A stretch of DNA of 64,000 bases from assembly GCA_028868825.1 (NCBI GenBank), contig JAGWTU010000028.1, positions 789-64,788 of the forward strand. The letters are read 5' to 3'. The translations under genes were made by a program, and so were the position numbers. Shown here one piece after another: positions 1 through 20,794 of this stretch. Position 1 is the stretch's first letter; every line of letters begins with the position of its first letter. The stretch is from Burkholderiales bacterium. GTDB lineage: Bacteria > Pseudomonadota > Gammaproteobacteria > Burkholderiales > Burkholderiaceae_C. Under the pieces are notes generated by a model that was not told the origin of the DNA, made no database searches, and saw nothing but the letters and a program-made list of their open reading frames with translations.

Positions 1-331
1 ATCGTCAAGTTGAAGACGATGGAAGGCCAGCGGTGCGGGATCTGCAGTTCCTCCTTGTACGCAGCGGCGCAGCCGGACGACACGATCAGGATCACCACCA
101 CCGAGAACAGCGCCGCCGCCCAGTACATCGGGTAGAGGCGGAAGAAGCGGTTCTCGGCGTAGCCGCGGATGCCGCGCCAGTCGTAGCCGTAGGTCCCGTG
201 CATGATCATCGTCATCAGGAAACCGCTGAGGACGAAGAACGAGAACACCGCATCGGGCCCGATGACCGGGATGTCGAGCAGGTGGAGGCCACCACGAAGA
301 GGGCGAGCATCGTTCTGTAGAAACCGAACAT
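1..331 (-). pseudogene. Acyltransferase family 3 (O-acyltransferase) gene, 5' part. It appears frameshifted and continues past the window start.
   Basis: On the minus strand, GGAGGG-N3-ATG sits at 331. That frame reads MFGFYRTMLALFVVAS and then hits TGA at 217-215. The adjacent frame from about 284 to 1 reads HLLDIPVIGPDAVFSFFVLSGFLMTMIMHGTYGYDWRGIRGYAENRFFRLYPMYWAAALF. Together these give the acyltransferase_3 signature (R..A.L.VV..H plus FFVLSGFL), split by a 1-nt frame change near 284-287. The second frame has no start codon upstream of the His. Confidence 0.45.
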
Positions 332-462
332 GTTCCCTCCGATGCGTCCGGGCGCCTAGCGCGACGCCGGCGCCAACGCGGCCGCCTGGCGTTGCGGTGC
401 GGCAGGCGATTGCCCGTCACCGGCGCCCGGCGCGCAGGCGCAGACTCGTTGCATCGGCCGGC

Positions 463-2072: not shown

Positions 2073-2145
2073 TTCGTTCTCCTCTGGTTCTTGTTCATTC
2101 GCAATTCACGCCGTTCGGCCGACGCCGGCAAGCGAGACCACGCCA

Positions 2146-3807: not shown

Positions 3808-3835
3808 GCGTGGAGTTTGGGAGAACCTGGAGATT

Positions 3836-5302
3836 TCAAGCGTCGCGGATGCGGCGAGCCTGCAGCCGCGTCCTGAGGGGATTTGCGGCGCGCATGACCT
3901 CGCCCCACAGCGGGTGCCGGGTCGCCCGCACAGCCGCGAGCCAGGCCAAGGTGGTCAGCGAGCCGCCGATCAGCAACTGCCAGATGTAGTTGCCGGGGTG
4001 GGCCGGCATGACGTTGACGACGAGGACCATCGGCGCGAGCGCGAGCAGGGCCACCAGCAGGCTCGATGCCACCGACTCCCATAGACCGGCAACCGTGAAC
4101 CCGGCGCCGACCCGCATATGCCATTGCGACAGCCCGACCGTGCAGACGGCCGATGCCACCATGCCCCAGCAGGCGCCGGTGAGTCCCAAAGGAATCGCGA
4201 GCAGGAGCCCCAGTACCTGGGCGAGTTGTTGCAGGAACTGCAGCCTGGTTGCTAGTTTGACCTTGCCGCTGGACATCAAGGCTTCCTTGGCCATCGTGTG
4301 CATCATTTCCATGAATCCAGCCACGCAGAGGATTTGCGCGAGCGGCACCGCAGCGTCCCATTGCGGACCATAGACGATGCGTATGAGCGGAAACGCGGCC
4401 AATCCGAGGAAACCGATGATCGTGAAGGCGACGCCATTGAGCAGCTTGGCGCTGTGCGTATAGGCGCGTGACACGTTGCCGTCATCCCGGTCGGCGCGGG
4501 CGAAATACGGCATGAACACGGGGCCCACGGCCCGCGTGACCAGCATTCTGAACATCTGCATGAGGCCACCGCCGCGGCTGAAAAGGGCGACGCCGGTGAT
4601 GTCGAGCGCGCGACCGAGGATCATCTCCGGCGCGCCGCGGCCGAGTTGACCGATGGCGTAAAGACCGCTGGCGTAAGCGCCGAAACGCGCCACCTCGGCG
4701 AATCCCTTCGTCCCCGGCCAGCGGGGAAACTCCTTCGGCCTCAAGGCCATCGAGACGACGACGGTGATGACGACGCCCGCCAGGGACGAGTAGGCCAGGC
4801 TCAAGGCACCGAGGCCTCGCAAGCCGAGCCCTATCGCGACGATGAGGCTGACGACGTCCGAGGCGACGCTGCAGAAGAATATCGGCCTGAAATTCAGCTC
4901 GCGCCGGAACCAGGCCATGTTGATCGCCCCGAAGGGGATCAACAGGAAATTCACGCTCTGCACCTGCATCACCGTGGTGATTTCGGGCGAGCGATAGAAG
5001 GCGCCCACCGGCGACGCAAGGAGCAGCATCGCCAGGCCCATCGACCACGAGGTGACGATATTGACGAGGAAGGCCGCCCGGATGCGTTGGGTATCGAGAT
5101 CCTTCGCCTGGATCAGGTATTCGCCGATGCCGAAATCCCGCACGGTGCTGGCCAATGCGGCAAAGACGGCGGCAATGGCAAAGACGCCGACCTGCGCGGG
5201 TGTGAGGATGCGTGAAAGAACCGCGGTCGAGACCAGTTGCAGGCCTATGCTCACATAGGTCTGGACGGCGGAATAGGCGATCGATCGGCGCAAGTCAGAC
5301 AT
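3836..5302 (-). CDS. Polysaccharide/oligosaccharide flippase (MOP/Wzx-like polysaccharide biosynthesis protein)
   Basis: 488 aa, polytopic and hydrophobic. N-terminus AYSAVQTYVSIGLQLVSTAVLSRILTPAQVGVFAIA is typical of the Polysacc_synt family. Confidence 0.8.
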   Translation of the reverse strand: MSDLRRSIAYSAVQTYVSIGLQLVSTAVLSRILTPAQVGVFAIAAVFAALASTVRDFGIGEYLIQAKDLDTQRIRAAFLVNIVTSWSMGLAMLLLASPVGAFYRSPEITTVMQVQSVNFLLIPFGAINMAWFRRELNFRPIFFCSVASDVVSLIVAIGLGLRGLGALSLAYSSLAGVVITVVVSMALRPKEFPRWPGTKGFAEVARFGAYASGLYAIGQLGRGAPEMILGRALDITGVALFSRGGGLMQMFRMLVTRAVGPVFMPYFARADRDDGNVSRAYTHSAKLLNGVAFTIIGFLGLAAFPLIRIVYGPQWDAAVPLAQILCVAGFMEMMHTMAKEALMSSGKVKLATRLQFLQQLAQVLGLLLAIPLGLTGACWGMVASAVCTVGLSQWHMRVGAGFTVAGLWESVASSLLVALLALAPMVLVVNVMPAHPGNYIWQLLIGGSLTTLAWLAAVRATRHPLWGEVMRAANPLRTRLQARRIRDA

Positions 5303-5314
5303 GGTCGGCCTGCA

Positions 5315-6325
5315 TCAATGGGTCTGCGACCATGTGCGCCATGTCCGCCATTTGCAGCGGGCGGTATACAGCAACCACTTCAGGCCGGGTGCAGCCCCTA
5401 GGGCTTGGCCTGCGTAATGGCTGGCGTTGGGCCAGTCGCCCGCGGCGGCGTAATCGACCGCGATCTTCTTCAATGCGTAGCCTTTGTGCAAGCGGGCGTG
5501 GCGGCGGATGGCGGGGTCGGCGCTGCGTGCCAGCACGCGGTCCATCACGAGCGTCTGGTACAGGCGCTTGTCGATGCCGGCGGTGGCGGTGGTCACGTTG
5601 TTGCGCTGGCTCGGATCGGGCACATGGTGGCGCGAGACGACCGCCGGGTGATGGAGCATCAGCCGCGCCGGCTCGATCAGGTCGAGGTAGAGCTTGCGAT
5701 CCTGCTCCCAGCGGATGCCCTCGTCCATGCCGCCGACGCGCTCGTAGAGTTCGCGCCGGACCGTGAAGACGTTGAGGTGGCAGAAGCCGTCGATGCGCAA
5801 CAGGTCGGCCACCGTCACCTCGTAGCGTCCCTGCTCGTCGGGGCGGCGCCCGCGCGCCTCGAGGTCGGCGGCCAGCGCGCCCAGCCACAGCAGGCCCAGG
5901 CTGCGGTCACCGATCCAGGCCTCCTGGTTGCCCATGTAGAGATCGAGCACGCGGCCTTGCGCCGCGGCATCGCCGATGGCGCGCGCGACGCGGTCGAGGT
6001 GCCCGCTGTCGGTCCAGCGGTCATCGTCGTCGAGGAAGCAGAGGTGGCTGCCGCGCGCGTGCGCCGCACCGGTATTGAGCGCATAGCTCGGGCCATGGCC
6101 CCGCGGCCGCTCGACGAGCCGGTGCAGCGACCAGCGTTCGCCCAGCCTTTGCGCCGCCGCATCCCAGATCGGTTGGTAAGCCGACAGCGATTCGGCGCTC
6201 GATCCATCGTCGACGACGACGATCTCGACGTCGTCGCGGCCCTGCGCGAGCACCGAATCCAGCGCCTCGGCGAAGAGGGCGGGGCGGTTGCGCGTCGCGA
6301 TGACGACCGAGATCAGCGGGTTCAT
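5315..6325 (-). CDS. Glycosyltransferase family 2
   Basis: Internal start MNPLISVVIATRNRPALFAEALDSVLAQGRDDVEIVVVDDGSS, then FLDDDDRW. The ATG at 6325 overlaps the upstream stop by 4 nt. The upstream 282 aa of the listed ORF are Arg/Ala-rich run-on sequence. Confidence 0.8.
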   Translation of the reverse strand: MNPLISVVIATRNRPALFAEALDSVLAQGRDDVEIVVVDDGSSAESLSAYQPIWDAAAQRLGERWSLHRLVERPRGHGPSYALNTGAAHARGSHLCFLDDDDRWTDSGHLDRVARAIGDAAAQGRVLDLYMGNQEAWIGDRSLGLLWLGALAADLEARGRRPDEQGRYEVTVADLLRIDGFCHLNVFTVRRELYERVGGMDEGIRWEQDRKLYLDLIEPARLMLHHPAVVSRHHVPDPSQRNNVTTATAGIDKRLYQTLVMDRVLARSADPAIRRHARLHKGYALKKIAVDYAAAGDWPNASHYAGQALGAAPGLKWLLYTARCKWRTWRTWSQTH

Positions 6326-7203
6326 CGGGGTTCGCCCGGTCCGGGCTTCGCGCCCAGCAGCCAGCCGCCGAGGATTTCGCGCAGCAGGCCGCGCGACTCC
6401 GATGCCGAGAAGGTCTGGTCGGCATCGGGCAGGTCGTGACGATCGACGCGCCGCGGCGAGGTCAGCGCGCGCTGCCAGGGCGGCGCCGACGCGACGAGCT
6501 CGTCGAATTCGCGGCTGACCTGGCTGCGTCCGCTCATCACCAGCAGCAGATCGCCGCGGTAGCGCGTCAGCCCCTGGCACATGCGATCGATGAAATGCGG
6601 TGTGGTTGCCGCGGCGCGCGGCCGCGCGCCGATCAGCGCCGCGCATCGCGAACGGGCGCTGCGCGCCAGCGTGCCCAGCGCCGGCCTGGGGTCGTACTGC
6701 CCGCGCAGCACCTTGGACCAGAAATCGCGATCGAGGATGCGGCGGCTGAAATGGTCGACGGCGACCTTGTCGGCCGTCTCGTCGGTGTGCACCCAGGGGT
6801 TGCCGAGCGCGATGCCGGTGACCTCGGGGTATTGCCAGGCATTGATCATGATCGCCGACGCGGCGTCGCAGCCGCCCCAGAGCACGACCTCGTTCAAGCC
6901 CGGCACCTGGGCGCGGAAGGCCGCGATCGCCGCGCCGATGTCGGCGCCGACATCCTCGAAGCCGCCGAAGCGCCCCTCGCTGTCGCCCAGACCGCGGTGG
7001 TCGAAGCGCATCATCGGGATGCCCATCGCGGCGAGGTCGCGCGCCAGTTCGACCTGCAGCCGATTCACGCCGGCGCGGTATTGCGGGCCGCCGGCGACGA
7101 CCAGCAGCAGGCCGCGCGCCGCGACCTGCTCGGGCCGATGGACGATGCCGACGAGCTCGCTCCCCTCGCATTCGAAGACGATCGGCAGTTCGGTCGACTT
7201 CAT
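6322..7203 (-). CDS. Alpha/beta hydrolase, exosortase A system-associated 'hydrolase 1' type
   Basis: Starts at MKSTELPIVFECEG. Contains FDHRGLGDSEG and a nucleophile elbow VVLWGGCDAAS with Cys at the nucleophile position. Paired with a second hydrolase through 4-nt overlaps. Confidence 0.7.
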   Translation of the reverse strand: MKSTELPIVFECEGSELVGIVHRPEQVAARGLLLVVAGGPQYRAGVNRLQVELARDLAAMGIPMMRFDHRGLGDSEGRFGGFEDVGADIGAAIAAFRAQVPGLNEVVLWGGCDAASAIMINAWQYPEVTGIALGNPWVHTDETADKVAVDHFSRRILDRDFWSKVLRGQYDPRPALGTLARSARSRCAALIGARPRAAATTPHFIDRMCQGLTRYRGDLLLVMSGRSQVSREFDELVASAPPWQRALTSPRRVDRHDLPDADQTFSASESRGLLREILGGWLLGAKPGPGEPR

Positions 7204-8033
7204 GCTTGCGCTCCCATCAGGCGCGAGGTCGTCGCGATCAGATCGGGCGCCGATTCGGGAACCTGCAATTGCCAGATCTTGGGGCACACGGCCACCGCCG
7301 TCGCGACCTCGACGCCGACGCCGCGGATCTGCTCGACGGCGCGCTGGCTCGGAAGCGCCAGGCCGGTGTCGGAGGGGCCGACCATCTCGATCCAGTCGAT
7401 GCGCGGGCCCGGCGCGGCGAGGTGGTCGGCGAGCCGCATCGCCGCCAGGCCTTCGGCGAGCGCCGGCGTCAGCGGATAGCCGCCGACCTCGAGCGTCTCG
7501 CCGCCGCGCAGGCGCTCGCGTATCGATTCGGTCGTCTCGCGGGCCTCGGCGTGGACGATCTGCGTGGCGATGCGCAAGCGCAGGTGCTGGTTCAGGAACA
7601 GCTTGCCGTCGAGCACGGGCTGCCAGAAAAGCAGCCGCTCGACGGCGACCTCGCGCGCCGCGGCCAGCCGCGCCGCCAGCAAGGCACCGGTGCGCACGCC
7701 CCAGACGGTGAGCGGCAGCGCGCTGTCGTCGGCGAGCCAGCGCGCGGCCCGCTTCGCGTCGTCGAGCCAGAGATCCCAGTCGCCCTCGAGCGTCGAGCCG
7801 CCGCTCTCGCCGGTGCCGTGGTAGTCCAGCAGCAGGCAGCGATAGCCGAGCGCCGCCAGCGCGCGCGCCTGCTTGGCGGCATGGGCGCGGCAACGGTTCA
7901 TCTCCTCGGTGAAAGGCGGCAGGTAGAGCAGGGCGCCGCGGCGGGTCCCGGTGGGGACGATGTCGAGCGCGAACAGTCGCCGACCGCCGAGTTCGAGGAA
8001 ACGCGGTCGGGCGTGCGAGGTCCGTTCGCTCAC
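7200..8033 (-). CDS. Alpha/beta hydrolase-fold protein, exosortase A system-associated 'hydrolase 2' type
   Basis: GTG start (VSERTSH) overlapping the upstream stop as GTGA. Contains LLLDYHGTGESGG and an elbow-position sequence LTVWGVRTGALLA with Arg where the nucleophile is expected. Confidence 0.65.
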   Translation of the reverse strand: MSERTSHARPRFLELGGRRLFALDIVPTGTRRGALLYLPPFTEEMNRCRAHAAKQARALAALGYRCLLLDYHGTGESGGSTLEGDWDLWLDDAKRAARWLADDSALPLTVWGVRTGALLAARLAAAREVAVERLLFWQPVLDGKLFLNQHLRLRIATQIVHAEARETTESIRERLRGGETLEVGGYPLTPALAEGLAAMRLADHLAAPGPRIDWIEMVGPSDTGLALPSQRAVEQIRGVGVEVATAVAVCPKIWQLQVPESAPDLIATTSRLMGAQA

Positions 8034-8812
8034 GCTGCGGCCCTCGTCGGCAATTGCACCGACCGCTGCGCGCGCGCGATCAGCGCCGCGCGGTGTTCGC
8101 CGTAGGCCTGCAGCGCCTCTTCGTGCAGCGCCGTCGGTATCTCGATCTCGTCGTAGCTGCGCTTTTGCGCCGCGACCTTGCCCGATTTCAGCCGCGCGGA
8201 ATGGTCGCCCGCGGCGCCGCTGCCGGTGCGGTTGAAGACGCCGTATTCGGTCGGGATCGGTCCGTCCAATTGCAGCCAGTCGCCGAGCGCGGCCAGCGTC
8301 GGCGCCGTGTCGCTGACGATGAGTTCGGCGTCGAGGTAGAAATAAGGCGACTGCAGATTGCGCGCGACGCCGGCCAGCGACTTCAGCCGGTCGATGTAAT
8401 AGCGCGCCGCGCCTACGACCTCGGCCTCGGGCTGCGTGGGCAGATGTTCGCGGTAGAGCACGACGAGACTGCGGATCGATTGCGTCGGTTCGCGCAGCAT
8501 CAGGATCGTGCGGCTGCTCGGGCGCTCCAGCAGCGGCAGCGCGACGGCATGGCCGTCGTGCAGCACCTTGTCGAACATGTAGCGCGCGCCGGGCTTGGCG
8601 CTGTGGTCGGCGAAATGCAGCATCTTCTGGCGCCACAGGCTTTTCCAGCTGTAGTAGCCGATGTGCATCTCGTAATAGCCCTCGATCTGCGGGTGGCTGC
8701 CGAGCAGATGGCCGAGCAGGCTCGTATTGGCCCGCATATGGCTGAGCAGGAAGATGTTGCGGTGGCGCAGCACCAGCGACGGATTGGCGGCGAATGCCGA
8801 CAGCAGCGACAT
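8030..8812 (-). CDS. Sulfotransferase-like protein (putative)
   Basis: 5'-PSB-like motif IFLLSHMRANTSLLGHLLGSHPQI and 3'-PB-like motif MLREPTQSIRSL, about 260 aa. Assignment is by motif resemblance only. Confidence 0.5.
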   Translation of the reverse strand: MSLLSAFAANPSLVLRHRNIFLLSHMRANTSLLGHLLGSHPQIEGYYEMHIGYYSWKSLWRQKMLHFADHSAKPGARYMFDKVLHDGHAVALPLLERPSSRTILMLREPTQSIRSLVVLYREHLPTQPEAEVVGAARYYIDRLKSLAGVARNLQSPYFYLDAELIVSDTAPTLAALGDWLQLDGPIPTEYGVFNRTGSGAAGDHSARLKSGKVAAQKRSYDEIEIPTALHEEALQAYGEHRAALIARAQRSVQLPTRAAA

Positions 8813-8818
8813 GGGGCT

Positions 8819-10615
8819 TCAGTCCTGAGGTGGTTGGAGCCAGGCGTCGACCGAGGTCAGCACCTGTTTGCAGACGCGCTCGTAGACGGCGCGCGTCTTG
8901 CCGTAGGGGTCCGGCACTTCGACCTGCGCCGGGTTCGATGCGCTGGCGGCACCGAGCAGGTAGGCCTTGCCGCCGGCGGCCGGATGCTCGCGCGCGAGGC
9001 GGTCGAGGTGCGCGACTTCCATCGCGAACACGATGTCGGCGTCGGCGACGAGCCGGGCGTCGAGCGTGCGCGAATGCCAGGCGCCGAGTTCGACGCCGCC
9101 GGCGGCGGTGGCGGCGACGTCGACCATCGTCGGATCGGCGGGCCGCCCCGCGGGGCTGTGGAAGCCGGCCGAGGCGAATTCAAAGCGACCGGGGTAGCGG
9201 CGCTCGGCATAGGCCTGGGCAAGCGCACTGCGGTTGATGTTGCCGTGGCAGAGGAAGACGATGCGCCGCGCCTTGCGCAGGCGTTGGCGTGCCGGCGCCG
9301 CGGCGCGCAGCTCGCGCTCGAGCCGGCGCCGCTGCGCGACGATGGCGCCGAAGCGGCGCGCCTGGTGGCTGGCGATGCGGCCGAGGTCGACGAGCCCGGG
9401 CCAGGGATCGCGCCAGCTCTGGACGTCGAAATGGTGGCGCGGCGAGAACATCAGCAGCCAGTCGCGCAGCACTTCGCGCTTGGACGGCAGCGTGACGAGT
9501 TGCGGTGGCGCCGCCTTGCGCAGCACATGCTCGGACCAGTCGATGTCGCGCGCGAGATGGCGCGCGACGATGCCGCTGCGCGCCGCCGGCCAGTCGCCGA
9601 CGTGCCCGGTGGTCCACAGCTCATGCAGCATGGCCGGGAAGTCGGCGCCGGCGGCGACGGCCAGCGGCAGCGAGCCCCAGAAGCGGCCGTTGATCTCGAC
9701 GAGGACGAAGGCGCCTGTCTGCGGCTGGTACTTGAACTCGACCATCGCGACGCCATGCCAGCGCAGCGCCTGCATGAGCTTGCGCGAGGCCTCGAGCAGC
9801 GCCGGCACCGGCGCCTCGCTCACGCGCAGCGTGCTGCCGCCGCCGGTCAGCGGCACCTCGTGCAGCCGACGGTGCTGGAAGGCGTAGCGGACCTCGCCCT
9901 GGTCGGCGATCAATTCGATCCCGACCCCGTCGCCGCGGAAGTATTCCTGGAGGATCACGGCGCCATGGCGCAGCGCCGAGGTCGCCTCGGCCTCGAGACC
10001 GGCGTCGTCGAAGGCGTAGGCGACGCGCAGCTGGACGCGTTCGCCCGCGCCGCCGCCGACCGAGCGCGCCGGCTTGACGACGACGGGGTAGCCGAGATCC
10101 TTCGCCGCGGCGACGGCCTCGGCCGGGGAGGCGACGACGATGGACCGGGGCACCGGGATGCCGAGCGAGCGCGCGAGCGCGCCGGTGCGGTCCTTGTCGA
10201 GCACCTGCTCGAGTGCCTCGGCGCTTGCCATCGCGATGGGTTCGCCCTCGAAGCGCGAGCGCGCGCGCATCAGCGGCACCAGCGTGCGCTCGGTGACCGG
10301 AATCACGAGTCCGCGCCGCCGCTCGTCCAGCTGTTGCCGCAGCCAAGCGACGAATCCGGCCTCGTCGCGCAATGGATCGGGGTAGCGCAGGCAGGCCGCG
10401 ACATGGCGCGAACTGGCGGCGAGCGGGTGTTCGACATCGCTGGCGACCTCGACGGCCAATCCGCGACGCGCGAGCGCGCGCACGATCGACAGCGTCGACG
10501 CCTGGTCGCCGTCAAGGACGAGCACCGAAGGTCTGGCTGCACGGGGCGGTTCGGGCTTCGCTGGGCTGGGCATCTCGCAGGGTTGCGCGCCCCGGCCTCG
10601 CCGGCGCCTACGCAC
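8819..10615 (-). CDS. Fusion protein: N-terminal ATP-grasp ligase domain plus C-terminal low-molecular-weight phosphotyrosine phosphatase (Wzb/ArsC-fold) domain
   Basis: The ATP-grasp region (about 9596-10528) contains GYPVVVKPARS, ILQEYF and GVAMVEFKY...VLVEINGRFWGS. The LMW-PTP region (about 8822-9268) has the P-loop IVFLCHGNINRS (C at 9248-9250) and the general-acid motif VPDPYG. The start is uncertain: GTG at 10615 or ATG at 10573. Confidence 0.75.
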   Translation of the reverse strand: MRRRRRGRGAQPCEMPSPAKPEPPRAARPSVLVLDGDQASTLSIVRALARRGLAVEVASDVEHPLAASSRHVAACLRYPDPLRDEAGFVAWLRQQLDERRRGLVIPVTERTLVPLMRARSRFEGEPIAMASAEALEQVLDKDRTGALARSLGIPVPRSIVVASPAEAVAAAKDLGYPVVVKPARSVGGGAGERVQLRVAYAFDDAGLEAEATSALRHGAVILQEYFRGDGVGIELIADQGEVRYAFQHRRLHEVPLTGGGSTLRVSEAPVPALLEASRKLMQALRWHGVAMVEFKYQPQTGAFVLVEINGRFWGSLPLAVAAGADFPAMLHELWTTGHVGDWPAARSGIVARHLARDIDWSEHVLRKAAPPQLVTLPSKREVLRDWLLMFSPRHHFDVQSWRDPWPGLVDLGRIASHQARRFGAIVAQRRRLERELRAAAPARQRLRKARRIVFLCHGNINRSALAQAYAERRYPGRFEFASAGFHSPAGRPADPTMVDVAATAAGGVELGAWHSRTLDARLVADADIVFAMEVAHLDRLAREHPAAGGKAYLLGAASASNPAQVEVPDPYGKTRAVYERVCKQVLTSVDAWLQPPQD

Positions 10616-10624
10616 TCTCTCGGT

Positions 10625-11362
10625 TCAATGGGTAGCGGCGCTTGCGCCGCTTGCGGCGTCGACCGGCGCCGAAGCCGCGGAGGCAGGCGGATCGGACCAT
10701 TCGCCCTTCGCGCGCAGTCGCTCGATCAGGTCCTTGCGCTCCATGCCTTCATCCATCGCGGCCCAGGCCTGCTCTCGAGCATCCTTGTAGCGGCCCATCT
10801 GGAAGTAAAGCAGACCCAGGTTGTAGTGGGTGAACGGATTGTCTCCGGCCTTGATCGCGACATAGTCGAGCTGCATCGACGCGTCCTTGGGCCGACCGAG
10901 CTGGATCATGTAGTCGGCGTGCAGCATGCGCACGATCAGATCGTCGGGGCGGAATCGCTCGGCGCGCAGGAAATAGCATTCGACCGTGTAGTCGAGATTG
11001 CCCGGTTGAGGTGTCTTGTCGCGGATCGACCAGCGCATCAGCGTCGCCAGACCGCGCGGATGGTTCGGAAAGGCGTGCAGCAGGAAGGCAATTTCGGCCG
11101 CGAGGGTCCCCGTATTGCCATGTTCCAGATTCTCGACGTTGGGCGTGAAGTGATTGCTCTCGACCATGCGGACACCCGGATTGGTGCGGAAATCCCACGG
11201 TCCTCGGTTGTTCGGGATCGGAAAGGTATTGGTGCGCGGGCAAGGTTCGATCAACGTCTCGACCGCGCTTTGCCCCCAGGCCCATTGAGCCGACAACGTG
11301 CAGGCAAGCACGCCTGCGGTGGCGAGCCACCGATGTGAGCAGAGTCGCGGACCTGGAGCCAT
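10625..11362 (-). CDS. Secreted protein of unknown function with a TPR-like C-terminal region
   Basis: The internal start MAPGPRLCSHRWLATAGVLACTLSAQWAWGQ looks like a signal peptide. The C-terminal NPFTHYNLGLLYFQMGRYKDAREQAWAAM is TPR-like. I recognised no enzyme motif. Confidence 0.55.
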   Translation of the reverse strand: MAPGPRLCSHRWLATAGVLACTLSAQWAWGQSAVETLIEPCPRTNTFPIPNNRGPWDFRTNPGVRMVESNHFTPNVENLEHGNTGTLAAEIAFLLHAFPNHPRGLATLMRWSIRDKTPQPGNLDYTVECYFLRAERFRPDDLIVRMLHADYMIQLGRPKDASMQLDYVAIKAGDNPFTHYNLGLLYFQMGRYKDAREQAWAAMDEGMERKDLIERLRAKGEWSDPPASAASAPVDAASGASAATH

Positions 11363-11366
11363 CGCC

Positions 11367-11618
11367 TCAAGTCCCGACGCGTTCGACGATGAACCGGCAC
11401 AGGCTGCCGACGGTCGCAAACGTCTCGCCGCTGATCTCGTCGTCCTCGACCGAGATGCCGAAGCGGTCCTCCATCGCGCCGACGAGGCTGACGACGGCCA
11501 TGCTGTCGAGTTCGGGGATCGAGCCGAGCAGACGCGTGTCGGCGTCGAAGGATTGGGCACGGCCGTGCAGACCGAGCACGTCGTCCAGCATGTTCAGCAC
11601 TTCCTTGTTCGTATCCAC
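11367..11618 (-). CDS. Acyl carrier protein (stand-alone, exosortase A-associated type)
   Basis: 83 aa and acidic, with the phosphopantetheine attachment motif LDSMAVVSL. GTG start. Confidence 0.8.
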   Translation of the reverse strand: MDTNKEVLNMLDDVLGLHGRAQSFDADTRLLGSIPELDSMAVVSLVGAMEDRFGISVEDDEISGETFATVGSLCRFIVERVGT

Positions 11619-11854
11619 GCTAGTCCGCTTCTTCGATTGGGGTTGGTCGGTGGACGGCGCCGGGTCGGCGCGGACACACCGCTACGCCCGCGATCATATC
11701 GGCGTCGATTCCCGGCTAGGCGGCCATCCCGGCCACCTCGATGGGAGTCGTGCCATTGTTGGCGTTTCCACCTCGCCGGACCCCGTTCGACTCGTTGAAA
11801 ATCCCGCCGAGCGGCCGCCGATCGTGGCGGACTAACATCGTCCCATCCGGCGCC

Positions 11855-11871
11855 GGTTCGCCTGGCGAACC
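11855..11871 (+). promoter_or_regulatory. 17-nt palindrome GGTTCGCC-T-GGCGAACC in the divergent control region, 20 nt upstream of the ligase ATG
   Basis: Perfect 8-bp arms read directly from the sequence. It could be an operator or a 5'-UTR hairpin. Confidence 0.3.
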
Positions 11872-11890
11872 CGCCCGTAGCACTCCCGAC

Positions 11891-13498
11891 ATGAGCCCAC
11901 ATCCTCCCGAAGCCGCGCTGCTGCACGAGTTGATCTTCCGCGCCCGGTCGCTGACGCCGCAGGCGCCGGCGCTGACCTATGGCGCCGAGACCTGGACCTA
12001 CGAGCGCCTGGCGCAGGACACCGCGGCCTTCGCCGCCGGGCTGCGCGCACTCGGCCTCGAACGCGGCGAGCGCGTCGGCATCTGGCTCGAGAAGCGGTTC
12101 GAGGCCGTCGTCGCGAGTTTCGGCACCGCCGCCGCGGGCCTCGTGATGGTGCCGATGAACCCGCTGCTCAAGCCCGAACAGGTGGGCCACATCGCGCGCG
12201 ATTGCAACGCCCGCGTCATCGTCACGTCACCCGAGCGTGCTGCGCTGCTGGCCGCCGTGCTGCCGCAATGCCCGGACCTGCGCCACCTCGTGCTCACCGA
12301 CGGCCAGGCCGCGCCGGCGGGCGGCGCGGTCGCCGTGCAGCGCTGGTCCGAGCTGCTGGCTGCATTGCCTGCCGACGGCCATCGCGTCATCGACACCGAC
12401 ATCTGCGCCATCCTCTACACGAGCGGCTCGACCGGGCTGCCCAAGGGCGTCGTGCTCAGCCACCGCAACATGGTCGCCGGTGCCAAGAGCGTCGCCAGCT
12501 ATCTCGAGAACCGCGCCGGCGACACGCTGCTGGCGGCGCTGCCGCTGTCGTTCGACGCCGGCTTCAGCCAGCTCACCACCGCCTTCCACGCCGGTGCCCG
12601 CGTCGTGCTGCTGAACTACCTGATGCCGCGCGACGTGCTCAAGGCGATGGCGCGCGAGCGCGTCACCGGGCTCACCGCCGTGCCGCCGCTGTACATCCAG
12701 CTCACGCAGCTCGAATGGCCGGCCGAGGTCGGCGAGCATCTGCGCTATTTCGCCAACACCGGCGGGCGCATGCCGCGCGAGACGCTGGATGCACTGCGCC
12801 AGCGCGTGCCGCGCGCACTGCCGTTCCTGATGTACGGCCTCACCGAGGCCTTCCGCAGCACCTACCTGCCGCCGGCCGAGGTCGACCGACGCCCCGACAG
12901 CATCGGCCGCGCGATACCGAACGCCGAGATCCTCGTGCTGCGCGAGGACGGCAGCGAGTGCGCACCCGACGAGCCGGGCGAACTCGTGCACCGCGGCGCG
13001 CTCGTCGGCCAGGGCTACTGGAACGATGCCGAGAAGACGGCCGAGCGCTACCGCCTGCTCGGCGCCGGCCGCGGCGGCCGCATGGCCGGGCTGCAGCTGC
13101 CCGAATACGCCGTGTTCAGCGGCGACACGGTACGCCGCGATGCCGAAGGATTTCTCTATTTCATCGGCCGCCGCGACGAGATGATGAAGACCTCGGGCTA
13201 CCGCGTCAGTCCGACCGAGGTCGAGGAGATCGTCTATTCGACCAGGCGCGTCGGCGAATGCGTCGCGTTCGGCGTCGACCACCCGAGCCTGGGCCAGGCG
13301 ATCCAGATCATCGCCACCGCGCCCGACGGCAGCGCGGCGCTCGACGTGCCCGCGCTGCTCGCCGATTGCAAGCAGCGCATGCCGGCCTACATGGTGCCGG
13401 CCGGCATCCACCCGATGGCCGGCCCGCTGCCGCGCAACCCCAACGGCAAGATCGACCGCAAGCTGCTGGCGACGCAATGGTTGGAGACGCCCCGATGA
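11891..13498 (+). CDS. Acyl-CoA ligase (AMP-forming), exosortase A system-associated type
   Basis: Adenylate-forming motifs ILYTSGSTGLPKGV, YGLTE, SGDTVRRDAEGFLYFIGRRDEMMKTSGYRV and PRNPNGKIDRK. Start taken at MSPHPPEAALLHE. Confidence 0.85.
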   Translation: MSPHPPEAALLHELIFRARSLTPQAPALTYGAETWTYERLAQDTAAFAAGLRALGLERGERVGIWLEKRFEAVVASFGTAAAGLVMVPMNPLLKPEQVGHIARDCNARVIVTSPERAALLAAVLPQCPDLRHLVLTDGQAAPAGGAVAVQRWSELLAALPADGHRVIDTDICAILYTSGSTGLPKGVVLSHRNMVAGAKSVASYLENRAGDTLLAALPLSFDAGFSQLTTAFHAGARVVLLNYLMPRDVLKAMARERVTGLTAVPPLYIQLTQLEWPAEVGEHLRYFANTGGRMPRETLDALRQRVPRALPFLMYGLTEAFRSTYLPPAEVDRRPDSIGRAIPNAEILVLREDGSECAPDEPGELVHRGALVGQGYWNDAEKTAERYRLLGAGRGGRMAGLQLPEYAVFSGDTVRRDAEGFLYFIGRRDEMMKTSGYRVSPTEVEEIVYSTRRVGECVAFGVDHPSLGQAIQIIATAPDGSAALDVPALLADCKQRMPAYMVPAGIHPMAGPLPRNPNGKIDRKLLATQWLETPR

Positions 13499-14730
13499 GC
13501 CGCACCGCCCCCGTCCATGTGCCGATGTCGCAGTTCCCGCGCGTCGATGGCGAACTCACCGTCGGCGGCGAGCGGCTGAGCGTGCTCGCCGCGCGCGTCG
13601 CCAGCACGCCTTTCTACGCCTACGACCGCGCATTGATCCGCGCGCGCGTCGCCGCGCTGCGCGCCGCGCTGCCCTCGGCGGTGATGCTGCATTACGCGAT
13701 GAAGGCCAACCCGATGCCGGCCGTCGTCGCGCTGATGGTCGGGCTCGTCGACGGCATCGACGTCGCCTCGGGCGGCGAGTTGCGCGTGGCGCTCGACGCC
13801 GGCGCCGCGGCGGCCGACGTCAGCTTCGCCGGGCCCGGCAAGCGCGATGTCGAACTGCGCCAGGCGGTGGCCTCGCGCGTGCTCGTGAATGTCGAATCGG
13901 CGCGCGAGCTCCCGATCCTGGCGCAGGCCTCGCAGGAGCTCGGCCTGCCGGCGCGCGTGGCCGTGCGCGTGAACCCGGACTTCGAGCTCAAGGGCTCGGG
14001 CATGAAGATGGGCGGCGGGCCCAAGCAGTTCGGCATCGATGTCGAGCAGGTGCCGGCGGTGCTCGCGCGCATCGGCGAGCTCGGCCTCGCGTTCGAGGGC
14101 TTCCACCTCTATTCGGGTTCGCAGAACCTCAACGCCGAATCGATCTGCGAGGCGCAGCGCCAGTCGTTCGAACTCGCGCTGCGGCTGGCCGCGCTGGCGA
14201 GCGCGCCGGTGCGCCACCTCAACCTCGGTGGCGGCTTCGGCGTGCCGTATTTCCCGGGGCAGGAGCGGCTCGACCTGGCGCCCATCGGCGCCAACCTCGA
14301 GCGGCTGGCCGAGCGGCTCGAGACGGCGATGCCGGGAGCTTCGATCGTCATCGAGCTCGGCCGCTATTTCGTCGCCGAGGCCGGCGTCTACGTCACCCGC
14401 GTCGTCGACCGCAAGCTCTCGCGCGGCGAGGTCTTCCTCGTCTGCGATGGCGGCCTCAACCACCATCTGGCGGCCTCGGGCAACTTCGGCCAGGTGGTGC
14501 GCAAGAACTACCCGGCGGCGATCGGCCGGGCGCCACAGGGTGGCGCGGTCGAGGTCGCGTCGGCCGTCGGCCCGCTGTGCACGCCGCTGGACATCCTGGC
14601 CGACCGCATGGAGCTGCCGCAGGCCGAGATCGGCGATCTGGTCGTCATCTTCCAGTCCGGCGCCTACGGGCCGTCGGCCAGCCCGCAGGCCTTCCTCGGA
14701 CACCCGGCCTGCACCGAAGTGCTGGTTTGA
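13495..14730 (+). CDS. PLP-dependent decarboxylase (Orn/DAP/Arg decarboxylase fold), exosortase A system-associated type
   Basis: ATGA overlap with the ligase stop. PLP-lysine context LHYAMKANP, then GFHLYSGSQ and CDGGLNHH, all typical of the DAP-decarboxylase family. Confidence 0.85.
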   Translation: MSRTAPVHVPMSQFPRVDGELTVGGERLSVLAARVASTPFYAYDRALIRARVAALRAALPSAVMLHYAMKANPMPAVVALMVGLVDGIDVASGGELRVALDAGAAAADVSFAGPGKRDVELRQAVASRVLVNVESARELPILAQASQELGLPARVAVRVNPDFELKGSGMKMGGGPKQFGIDVEQVPAVLARIGELGLAFEGFHLYSGSQNLNAESICEAQRQSFELALRLAALASAPVRHLNLGGGFGVPYFPGQERLDLAPIGANLERLAERLETAMPGASIVIELGRYFVAEAGVYVTRVVDRKLSRGEVFLVCDGGLNHHLAASGNFGQVVRKNYPAAIGRAPQGGAVEVASAVGPLCTPLDILADRMELPQAEIGDLVVIFQSGAYGPSASPQAFLGHPACTEVLV

Positions 14731-14750
14731 CGGGGGCGGCAAGCGGTGCG

Positions 14751-15992
14751 GTGCGCCGGTCGCGTCGCGGCATCGGTTGCCTGCTTGCGCTGTTCGGCTT
14801 CGGCCTGGTCGTCGTGCTCGGTCTGCGCGCCGGCAGCGCAGCGCTGCGCGACGCGCCGCGCTCACCCGGCGAGATGATCGACCACGCCGAGCGCCGCCTC
14901 GTCGGCCATCCGCGCCTGCAGCGCTGGGGCGTGCCGATGCTCGAGGAACTGCGCGTCGCGCTCGGCGAGCCCAGCCCGGCCGAGCGCGCGCTGCCGTTCG
15001 CGGTGCCGCCGCTCGCGCCCAACCCGATGCAGGCGCCGGCGGCTGCGGCTGCGGACGATGCGCGCGTGATCCGCGTCGGGCCGACGCGCGCGATCCGCAC
15101 CATCGCCGAGGCGGCGCGGCGCGCCGTCGACGGCAGCGTGATCGAGATCGACCCCGGCGACTACCACCGCGACGTCGCCGTCTGGGACCGCGCGCGGTTG
15201 ACGATCCGCGGCCGCGGCGACCGCGTACGCCTGATCGCCGACGGTGCCAGCGCCGAGGGCAAGGCGATCTGGGTCGTGCGCCGCGGCGAGGTCACGATCG
15301 AGAACATCGAGTTCGTCGGCGCCCGCGTACCCGATCGCAACGGCGCCGGGATCCGGCTCGAGAGCGGCCAGCTGCTGGTGCGCCAATGCCGCTTCTACGC
15401 CAGCGAGAGCGGCATCATCACCGCCGCCGATGTGCGCTCGACGCTCGACGTCGAGGATTCCGAATTCGGCTTCCTCGGTCAAGGCGACGGCTACAGCCAT
15501 GGCATCTATGTCGGCGCCATCGCCTCGTTCAGGCTGGTCGGCAGCTACCTGCACGACGGCAATGCCGGCCACCTCGTCAAGTCGCGCGCCTGGAAGAACG
15601 TGCTCGCCTACAACCGCCTCATCGACGGGCCCGCCGGTCGCTCGAGCTACGAGGTCGAATTCCCGAACGGCGGCGAGGTCGAGATGGTCGCCAACGTGGT
15701 CGAGCAGGGGCGCAGATCACGCAACTCGGTCATCGTCTCGTACGCCGCGGAAGGCTATCGATATGCGACGAACCGGCTGCACCTGCGCGCGAACGTCATC
15801 GTCAACGACGGCCGCTGGGGCGGCACCTTCGTGCATGTCGCCCCCGGCCCGGCGAAGGTCGAACTGGTCGACAACCTCTGGGCCGGCGGCGGCCGGCTCG
15901 ACGTGCCGCCGGGTGCCCAGGAGAGCGGCAATCGATCGGCCGACTGGCCCTACGACATCGTGGTCCCGCCACCGATGAAGGTGCTGCCATGA
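14751..15992 (+). CDS. Membrane-anchored right-handed parallel beta-helix repeat protein (candidate polysaccharide lyase/epimerase)
   Basis: N-terminal TM segment GIGCLLALFGFGLVVVLGL. Repeated beta-helix-like units (NGAGIRLESGQLLVRQCRF, SESGIIT, HGIYVG, NAGHLVKSRA). The start is uncertain: GTG at 14751 or TTG at 14727. Confidence 0.7.
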   Translation: MRRSRRGIGCLLALFGFGLVVVLGLRAGSAALRDAPRSPGEMIDHAERRLVGHPRLQRWGVPMLEELRVALGEPSPAERALPFAVPPLAPNPMQAPAAAAADDARVIRVGPTRAIRTIAEAARRAVDGSVIEIDPGDYHRDVAVWDRARLTIRGRGDRVRLIADGASAEGKAIWVVRRGEVTIENIEFVGARVPDRNGAGIRLESGQLLVRQCRFYASESGIITAADVRSTLDVEDSEFGFLGQGDGYSHGIYVGAIASFRLVGSYLHDGNAGHLVKSRAWKNVLAYNRLIDGPAGRSSYEVEFPNGGEVEMVANVVEQGRRSRNSVIVSYAAEGYRYATNRLHLRANVIVNDGRWGGTFVHVAPGPAKVELVDNLWAGGGRLDVPPGAQESGNRSADWPYDIVVPPPMKVLP

Positions 15993-18496
15993 CGGATCCG
16001 GCGCCGGCCGTCCCCCGGAAGTCGCGGCGCCGCCGGTCGTCGAAGGCGTCGCCGTCGCCGCGCGGCAAGCCGTCCCAAGTGCCGCCGGCCCTGGCGGCCG
16101 CAGCCAGCGCGGCGCTGGCGCTGTTCCTGGCACTGCACCATCCCTTGTCGCCGGCGCTGGCGCTGCTGGGCTGCGCCGCGCTCGGCGGCCTCGCGTTCTG
16201 GCGCCCGCTGCCGGCGCTGGCGCTGCTGCCGGTGCTGCTGCCGGCGATCGACCTCATGCCATGGACCGGCTGGCTGACGTTCGAGGAATTCGACATCGCG
16301 GTGCTTGCGGTGGCCGCGGGCGCCTATGCGCGCCGGCTGCTCGAGCGACCCGAGGCGCGCCCGGCCGGCGGCGCGACGGCGCTCAAGGGGCTGCTGATCA
16401 CCGGCTATGCGGCGGCGCTGCTCGTGAGCCTGCTGCGGGGTTTCGCCGACGCCGGCGGACTGGTCTGGGGCTGGTGGCAGGGCTATCAGGAGTCGATGAA
16501 CAGCCTGCGCCTGCTCAAGCCCTACTTCCTCGCCTGCCTCGTGCTGCCGCTGTGGACCGGGGCGCTGCGCGCGCAGCCCCAGCGCTCGGCACGCGCGTTC
16601 GCGCTCGGCATGGCCGGCGGCCTCGGCGTGGTGGCGCTGCTGCTGCTGTGGGAGCGCTGGGCGAACACCGGGCTGGGCAATTTCTCGTCCGACTACCGCA
16701 CGACGGCCCTGTTCTGGGAGATGCATGTCGGCGGCGCCGCGCTCGACGGCTTCCTCGCGCTGACGATGCCCTTCGCGGTGCGCGAGCTGCTGCGCGCGCA
16801 CAGTGCGCGGCGCTGGTTCGCGGCGGCGCTCATCGTGCTGATCGGCGCCTATGGCTGCCTGACGACGTTCTCGCGCGATGTCTACATCGGCGTGCCGGCG
16901 GCGCTGATCACGATGACGGCGCTGGCCGCCCAGCAGCGAACGCGATCGCCGGCGTCGGCCGGCACGGCCGCGACGACACCCTGGCTGGCGACGATCCTCG
17001 TCTGGCTGCTGTTCGCCGGCGCCGTCGCCTGGACCTTCCCGAGCGGCGGTTACCGCGTCATGCTGGCGCTGCTCGGCGCCGTGCCCTGGGTGCTGGCGGC
17101 GCCGGCGCGGTTGCGCTCGCTCTGGTTCGGCTCCGCATCGTCGGCGCCGGCCCCGCGCGCCGCCGCTGCCGTGCTGGGCGCGGGTGGTGTCGCGGCGCTG
17201 CTGCTGACGCTGGCCGCCCTGGCGCTGCCCAAGGGGCCCTACCTCGTCTACGCGCTCGTCTGGAGCGCCTGCGCGCTGGCGGCGATGGTGCTGCGGCGGC
17301 GCCCGGCGCGCGCGCTAGCGATCGGCTACGGCGCCGCGCTCGTCGCGCTGATCGGACTCGTGCCGACCGTCGCGGGCTACTGGGGCGGTGCGGCGGCGCG
17401 CACGCAGGCACTGCCCGCGGCCGCCGTGCTGGCGCTGCTGGCCGCCTGGGGCTGCGCGTCGCGGCGCCCGCGCTGGCCCGACGCGCTGCGCTGGCAGGGC
17501 ACGCAGACGGCGGCGCTGGTGGTCGTCGGACTCGTCGGCGGCGTGCTGCTGGGCGGCAGCTACATGGACGACCGCTTCGCCAGCGGCCGCGAGGATCTGC
17601 ACACCCGTCTCGTCCACTGGCAGCATGGCGTCGGCCTGATGAACGGCGGCAGCGACTGGTTCTTCGGCAAGGGGCTGGGGCGCTACCCGGCGAACCGCTT
17701 CGTCTCCGGCTATGTCGAGGACGAGGTCGGCGACTATCGGCTGGGCGGCGCCGGTGCCGACCGCCACCTCGCGCTCAGCGGCGGCAAGCACATGCTGGGC
17801 TGGGGCGAGATGCTGCGCCTGTCGCAGCGCGTCGATGCCTTCGAGGGGCCGGTGACGGTGCGCGCCCGGGTCGGCGCCGACGCGCCGGTGACGCTGCAGT
17901 TCGAGCTCTGCCGCAAGCATCTGCTCTACGACAACGGCAGTTGCAGGGTGGCCAGCGCCAGGGTCGTCGCGTCCGCCGGGCAGACGCAGGCGATCGAGCT
18001 GCAGCTGACAGGGCCCGGGCTGGACCATGGCGACTGGTTCGCACCGAACTTCATCGTCTTCTCGGTCGCGGTCGCCGACAGCGGGCGCGCGGCGCGCATC
18101 GCCGAGCTGAGCGCGACCGACGCCAGGGGCCGCGAACTGCTCGAAAACCGCGATTTCAGTGCCGGCATGTCGCGCTGGTTCTTCAGCAGCGACAAGTACC
18201 ACCTGCCCTGGCACATGAAGAACCTCTTCCTGCACCTGCTGCTCGAGCAGGGCGCCATCGGTCTCGGCCTGTTCCTGGCGCTGCTCGCCGGCGCCTTCTG
18301 GCGCCTCGCCGCCGGCCGCGCCCGCGACCACGAACTGGCGCCGCCGCTGGCCGGCGCGCTGGTCGGATTCGTCGTCGTCGGCCTCTTCGACAGCCTGCTC
18401 GACGTGCCCCGCGTGGCCTTCCTCGCCTACCTGCTGATGCTGGTCGCCCTGAGCTTGGCGCCCGCGCGTCCCGGGGTCGCCGCGCGCGCACCCTAA
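15989..18496 (+). CDS. O-antigen ligase/polymerase-like (Wzy_C) membrane protein, exosortase A-associated 'O-glycosylation ligase' type, unusually long at 835 aa
   Basis: ATGA overlap with the upstream stop. Many TM helices, TTFSRDVYIG, and the terminal motif HMKNLFLHLLLEQGAIGLGLF. A soluble insert of about 200 aa lies before the terminal motif. Confidence 0.75.
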   Translation: MTDPAPAVPRKSRRRRSSKASPSPRGKPSQVPPALAAAASAALALFLALHHPLSPALALLGCAALGGLAFWRPLPALALLPVLLPAIDLMPWTGWLTFEEFDIAVLAVAAGAYARRLLERPEARPAGGATALKGLLITGYAAALLVSLLRGFADAGGLVWGWWQGYQESMNSLRLLKPYFLACLVLPLWTGALRAQPQRSARAFALGMAGGLGVVALLLLWERWANTGLGNFSSDYRTTALFWEMHVGGAALDGFLALTMPFAVRELLRAHSARRWFAAALIVLIGAYGCLTTFSRDVYIGVPAALITMTALAAQQRTRSPASAGTAATTPWLATILVWLLFAGAVAWTFPSGGYRVMLALLGAVPWVLAAPARLRSLWFGSASSAPAPRAAAAVLGAGGVAALLLTLAALALPKGPYLVYALVWSACALAAMVLRRRPARALAIGYGAALVALIGLVPTVAGYWGGAAARTQALPAAAVLALLAAWGCASRRPRWPDALRWQGTQTAALVVVGLVGGVLLGGSYMDDRFASGREDLHTRLVHWQHGVGLMNGGSDWFFGKGLGRYPANRFVSGYVEDEVGDYRLGGAGADRHLALSGGKHMLGWGEMLRLSQRVDAFEGPVTVRARVGADAPVTLQFELCRKHLLYDNGSCRVASARVVASAGQTQAIELQLTGPGLDHGDWFAPNFIVFSVAVADSGRAARIAELSATDARGRELLENRDFSAGMSRWFFSSDKYHLPWHMKNLFLHLLLEQGAIGLGLFLALLAGAFWRLAAGRARDHELAPPLAGALVGFVVVGLFDSLLDVPRVAFLAYLLMLVALSLAPARPGVAARAP

Positions 18497-20782: not shown

Positions 20783-20794
20783 GGGGAGGCGGTC

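Follow-up and report, generated by a model that had tools for sequence, protein, structure and literature searches.

An exosortase A-associated carrier-protein module in a recurrent, shuffled exopolysaccharide cassette and its possible role as a thiotemplated omega-aminoacyl donor pathway

Introduction

What is made by the small carrier-protein module associated with exosortase A (XrtA) and PEP-CTERM proteins, and what does its product modify? The question is raised by a locus in the left part of a 64,000-nucleotide stretch of Burkholderiales DNA (assembly GCA_028868825.1, contig JAGWTU010000028.1, positions 789 to 64,788), which we call the window. The module consists of an AMP-forming ligase, an 83-aa acyl carrier protein (ACP), a pyridoxal phosphate (PLP)-dependent decarboxylase and two alpha/beta-fold proteins annotated as hydrolases (hyd1 and hyd2). 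Between ACP and hyd2 the window has three further genes, encoding a secreted tetratricopeptide repeat (TPR)-like protein, a fusion of an ATP-grasp domain with a low-molecular-weight protein tyrosine phosphatase (LMW-PTP), here termed the fusion, and a sulfotransferase-like protein. A previous sequence-only reading regarded these three genes as insertions and the whole as a Dlt-like pathway. Here we compare the locus with family models, solved structures and related loci. With about even confidence, we propose that it encodes a thiotemplated omega-aminoacyl donor pathway that modifies a Wzx-dependent exopolysaccharide (EPS). The expanded cassette and this reading of its chemistry are new, in that no paper on either module or cassette turned up in literature searches.

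Results

The locus carries the XrtA-associated module

The G+C content of the window is ~70%, and its genes were therefore called by a codon-bias model. This recovered all eight genes from hyd1 to the decarboxylase at the positions expected from the sequence-only reading. Family libraries were run on 26 of the 57 called genes, and Pfam on 13 locus genes (positions 3-18496, the flippase being left out). In NCBIfam the ligase matches TIGR03098 with 760.3 bits (cut-off 592.35), the decarboxylase TIGR03099 with 605.1 bits (cut-off 478.45), hyd1 TIGR03100 with 259 bits (cut-off 168.45) and hyd2 TIGR03101 with 235 bits (cut-off 202.75). These scores are far above chance, and judged by them the locus belongs to the XrtA-associated set that NCBIfam defines. 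It shares with that set the adjacency of ligase and decarboxylase, the adjacency of hyd2 and hyd1, and the divergent orientation of ACP and ligase. It differs from it in the three genes between ACP and hyd2, and in its hyd1 and hyd2, which form a separate subclade and of which hyd1 has lost the Asp and His of its triad. The claim that the five genes correspond to TIGR03097-TIGR03101 holds for these four proteins but not for the ACP, for which the NCBIfam scan gave no exosortase-specific model, so that the models cover four of the five module genes. TIGR03097, presumably a different, O-antigen-ligase-like protein, was matched by no scanned gene.

No XrtA gene was recognised among the called genes of the 64-kb window, and a regular-expression search of its six frames found no PEP-CTERM tails. 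The sole other XrtA-system marker is the TIGR03087 glycosyltransferase at 35464-36657 (485 bits, cut-off 317). Directly upstream of this gene, 17 kb from the carrier module, lies a set comprising a GHMP kinase, a SIS isomerase, a nucleotidyltransferase and a HAD phosphatase (32596-36657 including the TIGR03087 gene), which looks like a nucleotide-heptose pathway.

The ligase and the decarboxylase resemble enzymes that act on carrier-bound amino acids

The ligase has an identical counterpart at NCBI in a metagenome-assembled genome of a Burkholderiales bacterium. Its best match in the PDB is 3wvn/3wv4 (208 bits), and beta-aminoacyl-ACP synthetases are also among its matches. We take 3wvn/3wv4 to be VinN, which reportedly loads 3-methyl-Asp onto the stand-alone ACP VinL. 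The ligase has the invariant A4 Asp of the nonribosomal peptide synthetase (NRPS) type, D222 in SFDAGFSQ, as well as the A10 motif PNGKIDR. The Asp of SFDAG aligns with that of SWDFG in 3wvn, presumably the residue to which the amino group of the substrate binds; R322 has its counterpart in the Arg of the 3wvn CKR motif. The sequence-only reading had left open whether a carboxylic or an amino acid is adenylated; judged by the invariant A4 Asp and the A10 motif, the ligase looks amino-acid-activating.

The decarboxylase aligns end to end with its best PDB match, the L-glutamyl-[BtrI ACP] decarboxylase BtrK (273 bits, E 3e-80), whereas the best true diaminopimelate (DAP) decarboxylase reaches 166 bits. 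It also remains below the lysA equivalog cut-off (234 vs 298). By the BtrK and LysA scores it would be closer to the BtrK/VinO type than to DAP or ornithine decarboxylases, which act on free substrates. Moreover, its gene is coupled to that of the ligase by an ATGA overlap, as the sequence-only reading had claimed, and this fits on-carrier chemistry.

The ACP matches PP-binding in Pfam with 33 bits and has its phosphopantetheinyl Ser in DSM. Among NCBIfam models AmcB, AsbD and DltC are matched weakly. By far its best PDB match is 2lki (70.9 bits, E 7e-19), which was deposited as 'putative uncharacterized protein' and probably represents an orthologous carrier protein solved by structural genomics.

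Carrier-bound amino acid decarboxylation has precedents in the BtrJ/I/K, FlvN/L/O, CtaD/E/F and VinN/L/O systems, in which Asp or Glu is tethered to an ACP by its side-chain carboxyl and a PLP enzyme then removes the alpha-carboxylate, which gives beta-alanyl- or gamma-aminobutyryl (GABA)-ACP (PMC11350588, PMC11284099). The module shares with all four a stand-alone carrier, an ATP-dependent loading enzyme and a PLP enzyme of the ornithine/DAP decarboxylase fold. However, the products of those systems go into aminoglycoside, polyketide or thioamide antibiotics (butirosin, vicenistatin, fluvirucin, closthioamide) in Bacillus, actinomycetes and clostridia, whereas the module lies in a proteobacterial EPS locus, its hyd1 and hyd2 are unrelated to BtrH and VinK, and no enzyme that would remove a protecting group is evident. 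By analogy, the module appears to resemble BtrK/VinO-type on-carrier decarboxylation most, without being part of those antibiotic pathways.

Neither of the two 'hydrolases' looks like a classical hydrolase

In a profile alignment of hyd1 to 9pjb, C112 is paired with the Ser nucleophile (GLSMGG) and residue 263 with the catalytic His (GGDHTFS). Residue 227 is taken as the triad acid by position and conservation. The Cys is invariant in all 79 hyd1 sequences, but the other two positions vary. Cys/Asp/His is found in 55 of the 79, Cys/Ser/Gln in 14, including the window (Cys112/Ser227/Gln263), Cys/Ser/His in six and Cys/Phe/Gln in three; the locus L018 has Cys/Asp/gap. All 23 hyd1 proteins that lack the Asp and/or the His come from loci that also contain the fusion, whereas the triad is not degenerate in any of the 51 fusion-free loci. 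The Gln-type sequences cluster separately.

In hyd2 the nucleophile position is occupied by Arg114 (GVRTG, aligned with GLSMG of 7q4h) in all 89 homologues, and there is no conserved His. The invariant positions include E44, R49, D70, W89, Q149, R152 and G185. Hyd2 has the look of an alpha/beta-fold protein without catalytic activity or with a ligand-binding role.

In these alignments a complete Ser/Cys-His-Asp triad was found in neither hyd1 nor hyd2 of the window, and neither appears to be a classical hydrolase. This makes it doubtful that both are hydrolases, as the sequence-only reading had assumed: in hyd2 an Arg replaces the nucleophile, and of the hyd1 triad just the Cys is left. The Cys-acyl enzyme of that reading fares better in one half, since hyd1 has a Cys at the predicted nucleophile position, and worse in the other, since the triad Asp and His are missing. 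The two proteins of the window are 35-45% identical to their canonical counterparts but 53-57% identical to those of the fusion-bearing loci L082 and L083. Fast evolution as the cause of the low identity to the canonical proteins was rejected in view of these values and the separate Gln-type cluster.

The fusion and the sulfotransferase belong to a recurrent, shuffled cassette

A scan with the ligase alignment over one genome per GTDB species gave 80 loci (L001-L080), with ligase identities of 72-80%. Counts refer to the 57 of them whose sequence extends 6 kb or more upstream of the ligase. A homologue of the ACP lies beside the ligase in 53 of these 57 genome loci; the decarboxylase has a homologue in 51, and hyd2 and hyd1 in 49 each. 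ACP, hyd2 and hyd1 are contiguous in 43. The TPR-like protein has a homologue in 40, in 19 of them immediately beside hyd1, its usual place being just downstream of hyd1. The canonical layout is TPR-hyd1-hyd2-ACP / ligase-decarboxylase. The ATP-grasp domain, in contrast, has a homologue in two genome loci, the PTP domain in one and the sulfotransferase in none. In one Rubrivivax metagenome-assembled genome (CAYUPF01) two contigs, L027 and L051, each contain a ligase-ACP-hyd2-hyd1 set; therefore some genomes may carry two copies of the module.

Since it is present in 40 of the 57 loci, the TPR-like gene has been relocated rather than added in the window. As yet without a family model, it regularly accompanies the module.

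When metagenomes were scanned with the alignment of the fusion, another 80 loci turned up, in sludge, sediment and marine samples. Here counts refer to the 37 of them in which identity is 39% or higher and the flanking sequence amounts to 8 kb or more, and to neighbours within 10 kb. The tightest partner of the fusion is the family 2 glycosyltransferase (GT2) encoded next to hyd1, a homologue of which is found in 36 of the 37. It is followed by hyd2 (22), hyd1 (21), ACP and flippase (20 each), the asparagine (Asn)-synthase-like gene (15), the TPR-like gene (13) and the sulfotransferase (12). Ligase and decarboxylase are found in five loci each.

The gene string of the window is nearly identical in a close relative (L081), while L082 (a JGI metagenome) and L083 (Nitrogeniibacter mangrovi, CP048836) have rearranged versions of the gene set. 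In L081 and L082 the TPR-like gene lies behind the ACP gene, as in the window, and Polysacc_synt genes for the flippase are present. The order of the methyltransferase and the second GT2 is the same in L081, and an Acyl_transf_3 gene closes the cassette in all three loci. Thus, the fusion and the sulfotransferase belong to a recurrent cassette together with the GT2, ACP-hyd2-hyd1, the flippase and the Asn-synthase-like gene, and the window is one permutation of it.

These comparisons change the picture of three inserted genes. The gene order is real, and the fusion (at most two of 57) and the sulfotransferase (none of 57) are rare beside the ligase. The TPR-like gene, however, is no extra but a common neighbour that has moved, and the other two are not a one-off insertion but part of a widespread cassette with its own hyd1/hyd2 subclade.

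In L083 the cassette end is met, in convergent orientation, by a gene (19649-21556) whose product combines a CysN and a CysC domain (sulfate adenylyltransferase and adenylylsulfate kinase). This gene is compatible with a local supply of the sulfate donor 3'-phosphoadenosine-5'-phosphosulfate (PAPS) to the sulfotransferase.

Predicted activities of the tailoring proteins

The Pfam matches of the fusion are LMWPc (70 bits) and several ATP-grasp models, among them CPSase_L_D2 and ATPgrasp_Ter. Its family comprises 1625 database clusters at E <1e-10. The PTP motifs C426-x5-R432-S433 and D539-P-Y541 are invariant in 19 sequences, and so are the P-loop as a whole (C[YH]GNINRS) and the ATP-grasp motifs. 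The best PDB matches of the C-terminal PTP domain are Wzb and AmsI. Its reading as an ArsC-type arsenate reductase was rejected, the P-loop Cys being the sole conserved Cys. Wzb and AmsI, the LMW-PTPs of EPS and capsule loci, share with it the CX5R(S) P-loop and the DPY motif, but the domain of the window has one conserved Cys and is fused to an ATP-grasp domain of 400 aa. An AlphaFold2 (AF2) model of the fusion (pLDDT 86) likens the ATP-grasp domain to biotin carboxylase, carbamoyl phosphate synthetase (CPS) and L-amino-acid ligases. Foldseek with this model returned generic ATP-grasp neighbours only, which do not discriminate between substrates. On this model the domain has a predicted generic carboxylate-amine/thiol ligase fold.

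The sulfotransferase-like protein matches Sulfotransfer_3 in Pfam with 31 bits, at its N-terminus only. Since a PDB sequence search with it gave no match, its fold was obtained by prediction. In the AF2 model (pLDDT 87) the top 24 Foldseek matches in the PDB are all sulfotransferases (TMq 0.40-0.58), including CurM ST, 3-OST, NDST and TPST. Moreover, R27-A-N-T30-S and R107-x-P109-x5-S115 are invariant or nearly so. We take these stretches to be the 5'-phosphosulfate-binding (5'-PSB) and 3'-phosphate-binding (3'-PB) motifs, the first with an Asn where the loop usually has a Gly. Fold and motifs together predict a PAPS-type sulfotransferase. Its family has 610 homologue clusters, and several of the listed contigs have the same size as fusion-bearing ones.

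The matches of the TPR-like protein to TPR_1 and TPR_2 are weak and below the cut-off. The Asn-synthase-like protein aligns to TIGR03108 only from position 118 and below that cut-off. It lacks the N-terminal glutaminase nucleophile, and its open reading frame has no upstream start codon; it may be an ammonia- or amine-dependent amidotransferase. Asn-synthase genes of similar size occur in L081, L082 and L083 (556, 557 and 579 aa).

Layout of the locus

The features of the locus are listed in Table 1. Two divergent operons around a control region of 272 bp, the 83-aa ACP with its DSM motif and the coupling of hyd1 and hyd2 by an overlap had all been described in the sequence-only reading, and each was borne out. 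From ACP through hyd1 the genes overlap by 4 nt or are separated by gaps of less than ~55 nt, and in the whole minus-strand string, which runs from ACP leftwards and includes the Acyl_transf_3 fragment at the window edge, the largest gap is 73 nt. Beyond the plus-strand genes of the locus, housekeeping genes begin at ~18.5 kb.

Table 1. Features of the carrier-protein locus, from the ACP leftwards and then rightwards
Feature	Positions	Strand	Remarks
ACP, 83 aa	11367-11618	-	Motif IPELDSMAV
Secreted TPR-like protein	10625-11362	-	Signal-peptide-like N-terminus; start 4 nt past ACP stop
ATP-grasp::LMW-PTP fusion	8819-10573	-	Start uncertain; alternatives GTG 10615 and GTG 10525
Predicted PAPS-type sulfotransferase-fold protein	8030-8812	-	Sulfotransfer_3 and predicted fold
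hyd2 (TIGR03101), alpha/beta fold	7200-8033	-	GTGA overlap with sulfotransferase gene
hyd1 (TIGR03100), alpha/beta fold	6322-7203	-	ATGA overlap with hyd2 at 7200-7203
GT2 glycosyltransferase	5315-6325	-	Glycos_transf_2, 79 bits; 4-nt overlap with hyd1
MOP/Wzx-type flippase	3836-5293	-	NF007773, 162 bits, below 273-bit cut-off
Asn-synthase-like amidotransferase	2146-3807	-	Asn_synthase, 239 bits
Class I methyltransferase	1425-2072	-	Distal end of minus-strand string
Second GT2	463-1413	-	Distal end of minus-strand string
Acyl_transf_3 membrane acyltransferase fragment	3-248		Window edge
Divergent ACP/ligase intergenic region	11619-11890	.	Exactly 272 bp; sequence reading
AMP-forming ligase (TIGR03098)	11891-13498	+	
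PLP-dependent decarboxylase (TIGR03099), BtrK-like	13495-14730	+	ATGA overlap with ligase at 13495-13498
Beta-helix protein	14751-15992	+	Weak Beta_helix match, 19 bits
Polytopic membrane protein, 805 aa	16079-18496	+	No Pfam or NCBIfam family

Scans of positions 5200-16200 gave terminators at chance level only, none of them convincing, and no sigma-70-like promoter site. The sigma-54 consensus is absent from the 272-bp spacer, and window-wide its matches are fewer than in shuffled sequences. Another 61 loci share the divergent arrangement of ACP and ligase, their spacers measuring 79-308 nt; a k-mer comparison of the 62 spacers revealed no motif in common with that of the window. Several of the canonical loci among L001-L080 have variants of the motif TG[AC]GATACTTTT in their divergent spacers, the commonest 10-mers occurring in eight and six of the 62 spacers; the spacer of the window lacks the motif. 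This motif may be a regulatory site.

Homologues of the genes downstream of the decarboxylase are found near the ligase in several loci. For the 805-aa membrane protein they are full-length, with 40-44% identity, in L001, L014, L069, L073 and L079. Finally, a gene unrelated to the module (41267-42367) encodes a 366-aa protein that combines a MarR/GntR-like helix-turn-helix, a HATPase_c_2 histidine-kinase-like ATPase and a STAS-like DUF4325 domain.

Discussion

A proposed pathway

The pathway that we propose, in which we infer every chemical step, substrate and acceptor, draws on what was observed: the families to which the proteins belong, the order and coupling of their genes, their closest relatives of solved structure, the residue states of the active sites and the co-occurrence statistics. 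The ligase would adenylate an acidic amino acid such as Asp, Glu or 3-methyl-Asp, which would be joined via its side-chain carboxyl to the phosphopantetheine of the ACP. On the carrier the PLP enzyme would then strip off the alpha-carboxylate, as do BtrK, VinO, FlvO and CtaF, to give a beta-alanyl- or GABA-like aminoacyl-S-ACP. The aminoacyl group would pass to Cys112 of hyd1 by transthioesterification, with hyd2 as a probably non-catalytic partner whose invariant Arg residues may serve to bind either the ACP or an anionic substrate. None of the five module proteins has a signal peptide; the acceptor should therefore be cytoplasmic and be used before the flippase acts. Thus, the aminoacyl group might be set on a lipid- or nucleotide-linked sugar prior to flipping. 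The co-inherited tailoring set (GT2, fusion, sulfotransferase, Asn-synthase-like amidotransferase and methyltransferase) would act on the same product.

For the fusion a model may be provided by the capsule glucuronamide of Campylobacter jejuni, with Cj1438 (GT2 plus ATP-grasp amidoligase), the phosphatase Cj1435 and the PLP enzymes Cj1436/1437 (PMC11800379). As in that system, a GT2, an ATP-grasp carboxylate-amine ligase, a phosphatase and a PLP enzyme come together in a polysaccharide locus, and by the same logic the fusion would convert a carboxylate into an amide, with dephosphorylation as the next step. However, the phosphatase of the window is an LMW-PTP rather than a HAD protein and is fused to the ATP-grasp domain, not to the GT2. 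The likeness appears to be one of analogy, not homology. Alternatively, the fusion might extend the aminoacyl-ACP in the manner of BtrJ.

Several points weigh against the proposed pathway. The lead of 3wvn/3wv4 over ordinary NRPS A domains is small (208 vs 196 bits), and the roles of K330 and R331 of VinN are presumed ones. Hyd1 and hyd2 are not homologous to BtrH and VinK of the precedent pathways, and efficient acyl transfer by the hyd1 of the window is uncertain because the triad Asp and His are missing. The ATP-grasp domain resembles CPS and biotin carboxylase and is not TupA-like, in contrast to that of C. jejuni. The XrtA link is not visible within the 64-kb window. Moreover, the fusion co-occurs more tightly with the GT2 than with the ACP (36 vs 20 of 37 loci), and ligase and decarboxylase are within 10 kb of it in just five; because of this weak linkage the tailoring set may act apart from the carrier pathway.

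Alternative readings

The last point leads to the first alternative: fusion, sulfotransferase and TPR-like protein might be unrelated EPS-tailoring or regulatory genes that share an operon with the module, the PTP domain being a Wzb-type phosphatase for a Wzc-type kinase (BY-kinase) of the XrtA locus and the sulfotransferase sulfating the glycan independently. The similarity of the PTP domain to Wzb and AmsI speaks for this, as do the shuffled gene order, the rarity of ligase and decarboxylase near the fusion and the 13 of 37 loci in which the fusion is accompanied by the GT2 but has no ACP, hyd1 or hyd2 within 10 kb. In the other 24 loci, however, at least one of these three is present within that distance. 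The sulfotransferase gene is tied to hyd2 by a start/stop overlap, no BY-kinase was recognised in the window among the scanned genes (26 of the 57 called), and the hyd1 triad varies together with the presence of the fusion, with 23 degenerate triads in fusion-bearing loci and none elsewhere. We consider this alternative unlikely.

A somewhat smaller likelihood attaches to a Dlt-like pathway, in which an amino acid activated at its alpha-carboxyl and bound to the ACP would be esterified outside the cell to EPS or PEP-CTERM proteins, while the decarboxylase would act on a separate free substrate and yield, for example, a diamine. Like DltA and DltC, the locus combines an adenylation enzyme, here similar to amino-acid adenylation domains, with a small carrier, here weakly DltC-like, and Dlt too modifies a cell-surface polymer. 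The hyd1 Cys would fit an acyl relay, and the Acyl_transf_3 protein at the window edge, which also ends the cassette in L081-L083, could carry the acyl group across the membrane. Yet the MBOAT (DltB) and DltD families had no Pfam match among the 13 scanned locus genes (3-18496; the flippase was not scanned), and on this ground membership in the Dlt system fails. Moreover, unlike Dlt, the locus has two non-canonical alpha/beta-fold proteins and a decarboxylase that is translationally coupled to the ligase and much nearer to BtrK, an enzyme with an ACP-bound substrate, than to free-substrate decarboxylases; signal peptides are missing from ACP, ligase and both 'hydrolases'. The Dlt-like pathway of the sequence-only reading is thus reduced to a loose analogy, and the on-carrier decarboxylation systems are the closer precedents.

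Very improbable, finally, is a route in which a fatty-acyl- or aryl-AMP ligase loads the ACP and hyd1/hyd2, as thioesterase or acyltransferase, make an exosortase-linked lipid anchor or N-acyl amino acid: the NCBI family name 'acyl-CoA ligase', the second-best NCBIfam matches of the ligase (fatty-acid CoA ligases, 286 bits) and the PEP-CTERM-associated N-acyl amino acid synthases known from the literature would suit it, but the A4 Asp, which is invariant, typically marks enzymes whose substrates are bound by an amino group, the best solved relatives of the ligase are amino-acid adenylation enzymes, and the obligatorily coupled BtrK-like decarboxylase has no role with fatty acids.

Significance

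Literature searches for the module, its NCBIfam name and the combination of fusion and sulfotransferase found nothing relevant, and the module genes are unmentioned in the founding PEP-CTERM paper and in the epsSMASH preprint. In agreement with the sequence-only reading, no substrate or product assigned to the module turned up. The links of the decarboxylase to BtrK and of the ligase to VinN would turn a set of genes of unknown function into a specific, testable sequence of reactions. The expanded cassette, with its conserved ATP-grasp::phosphatase fusion, is a candidate route to sulfated, amino-acid-decorated exopolysaccharides, and the natural series of hyd1 proteins that lose the Asp and the His but never the Cys offers a handle on how both 'hydrolases' work. 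XrtA/PEP-CTERM systems are widespread in biofilm- and floc-forming environmental bacteria, including organisms of activated sludge.

The proposed pathway also allows a bolder idea, which we regard as a long shot. A beta-alanyl- or GABA-like omega-aminoacyl group might serve as a handle on lipid-linked EPS units, and its free amine might resolve the acyl-enzyme of exosortase A and thereby link PEP-CTERM proteins covalently to the polysaccharide. In that case hyd1 with its lone Cys and hyd2 with its Arg would be a new alpha/beta-fold aminoacyl relay, and the expanded cassette would produce a sulfated and amidated version of the handle. If true, this would be a Gram-negative counterpart of sortase and the cross-bridge amine of lipid II.

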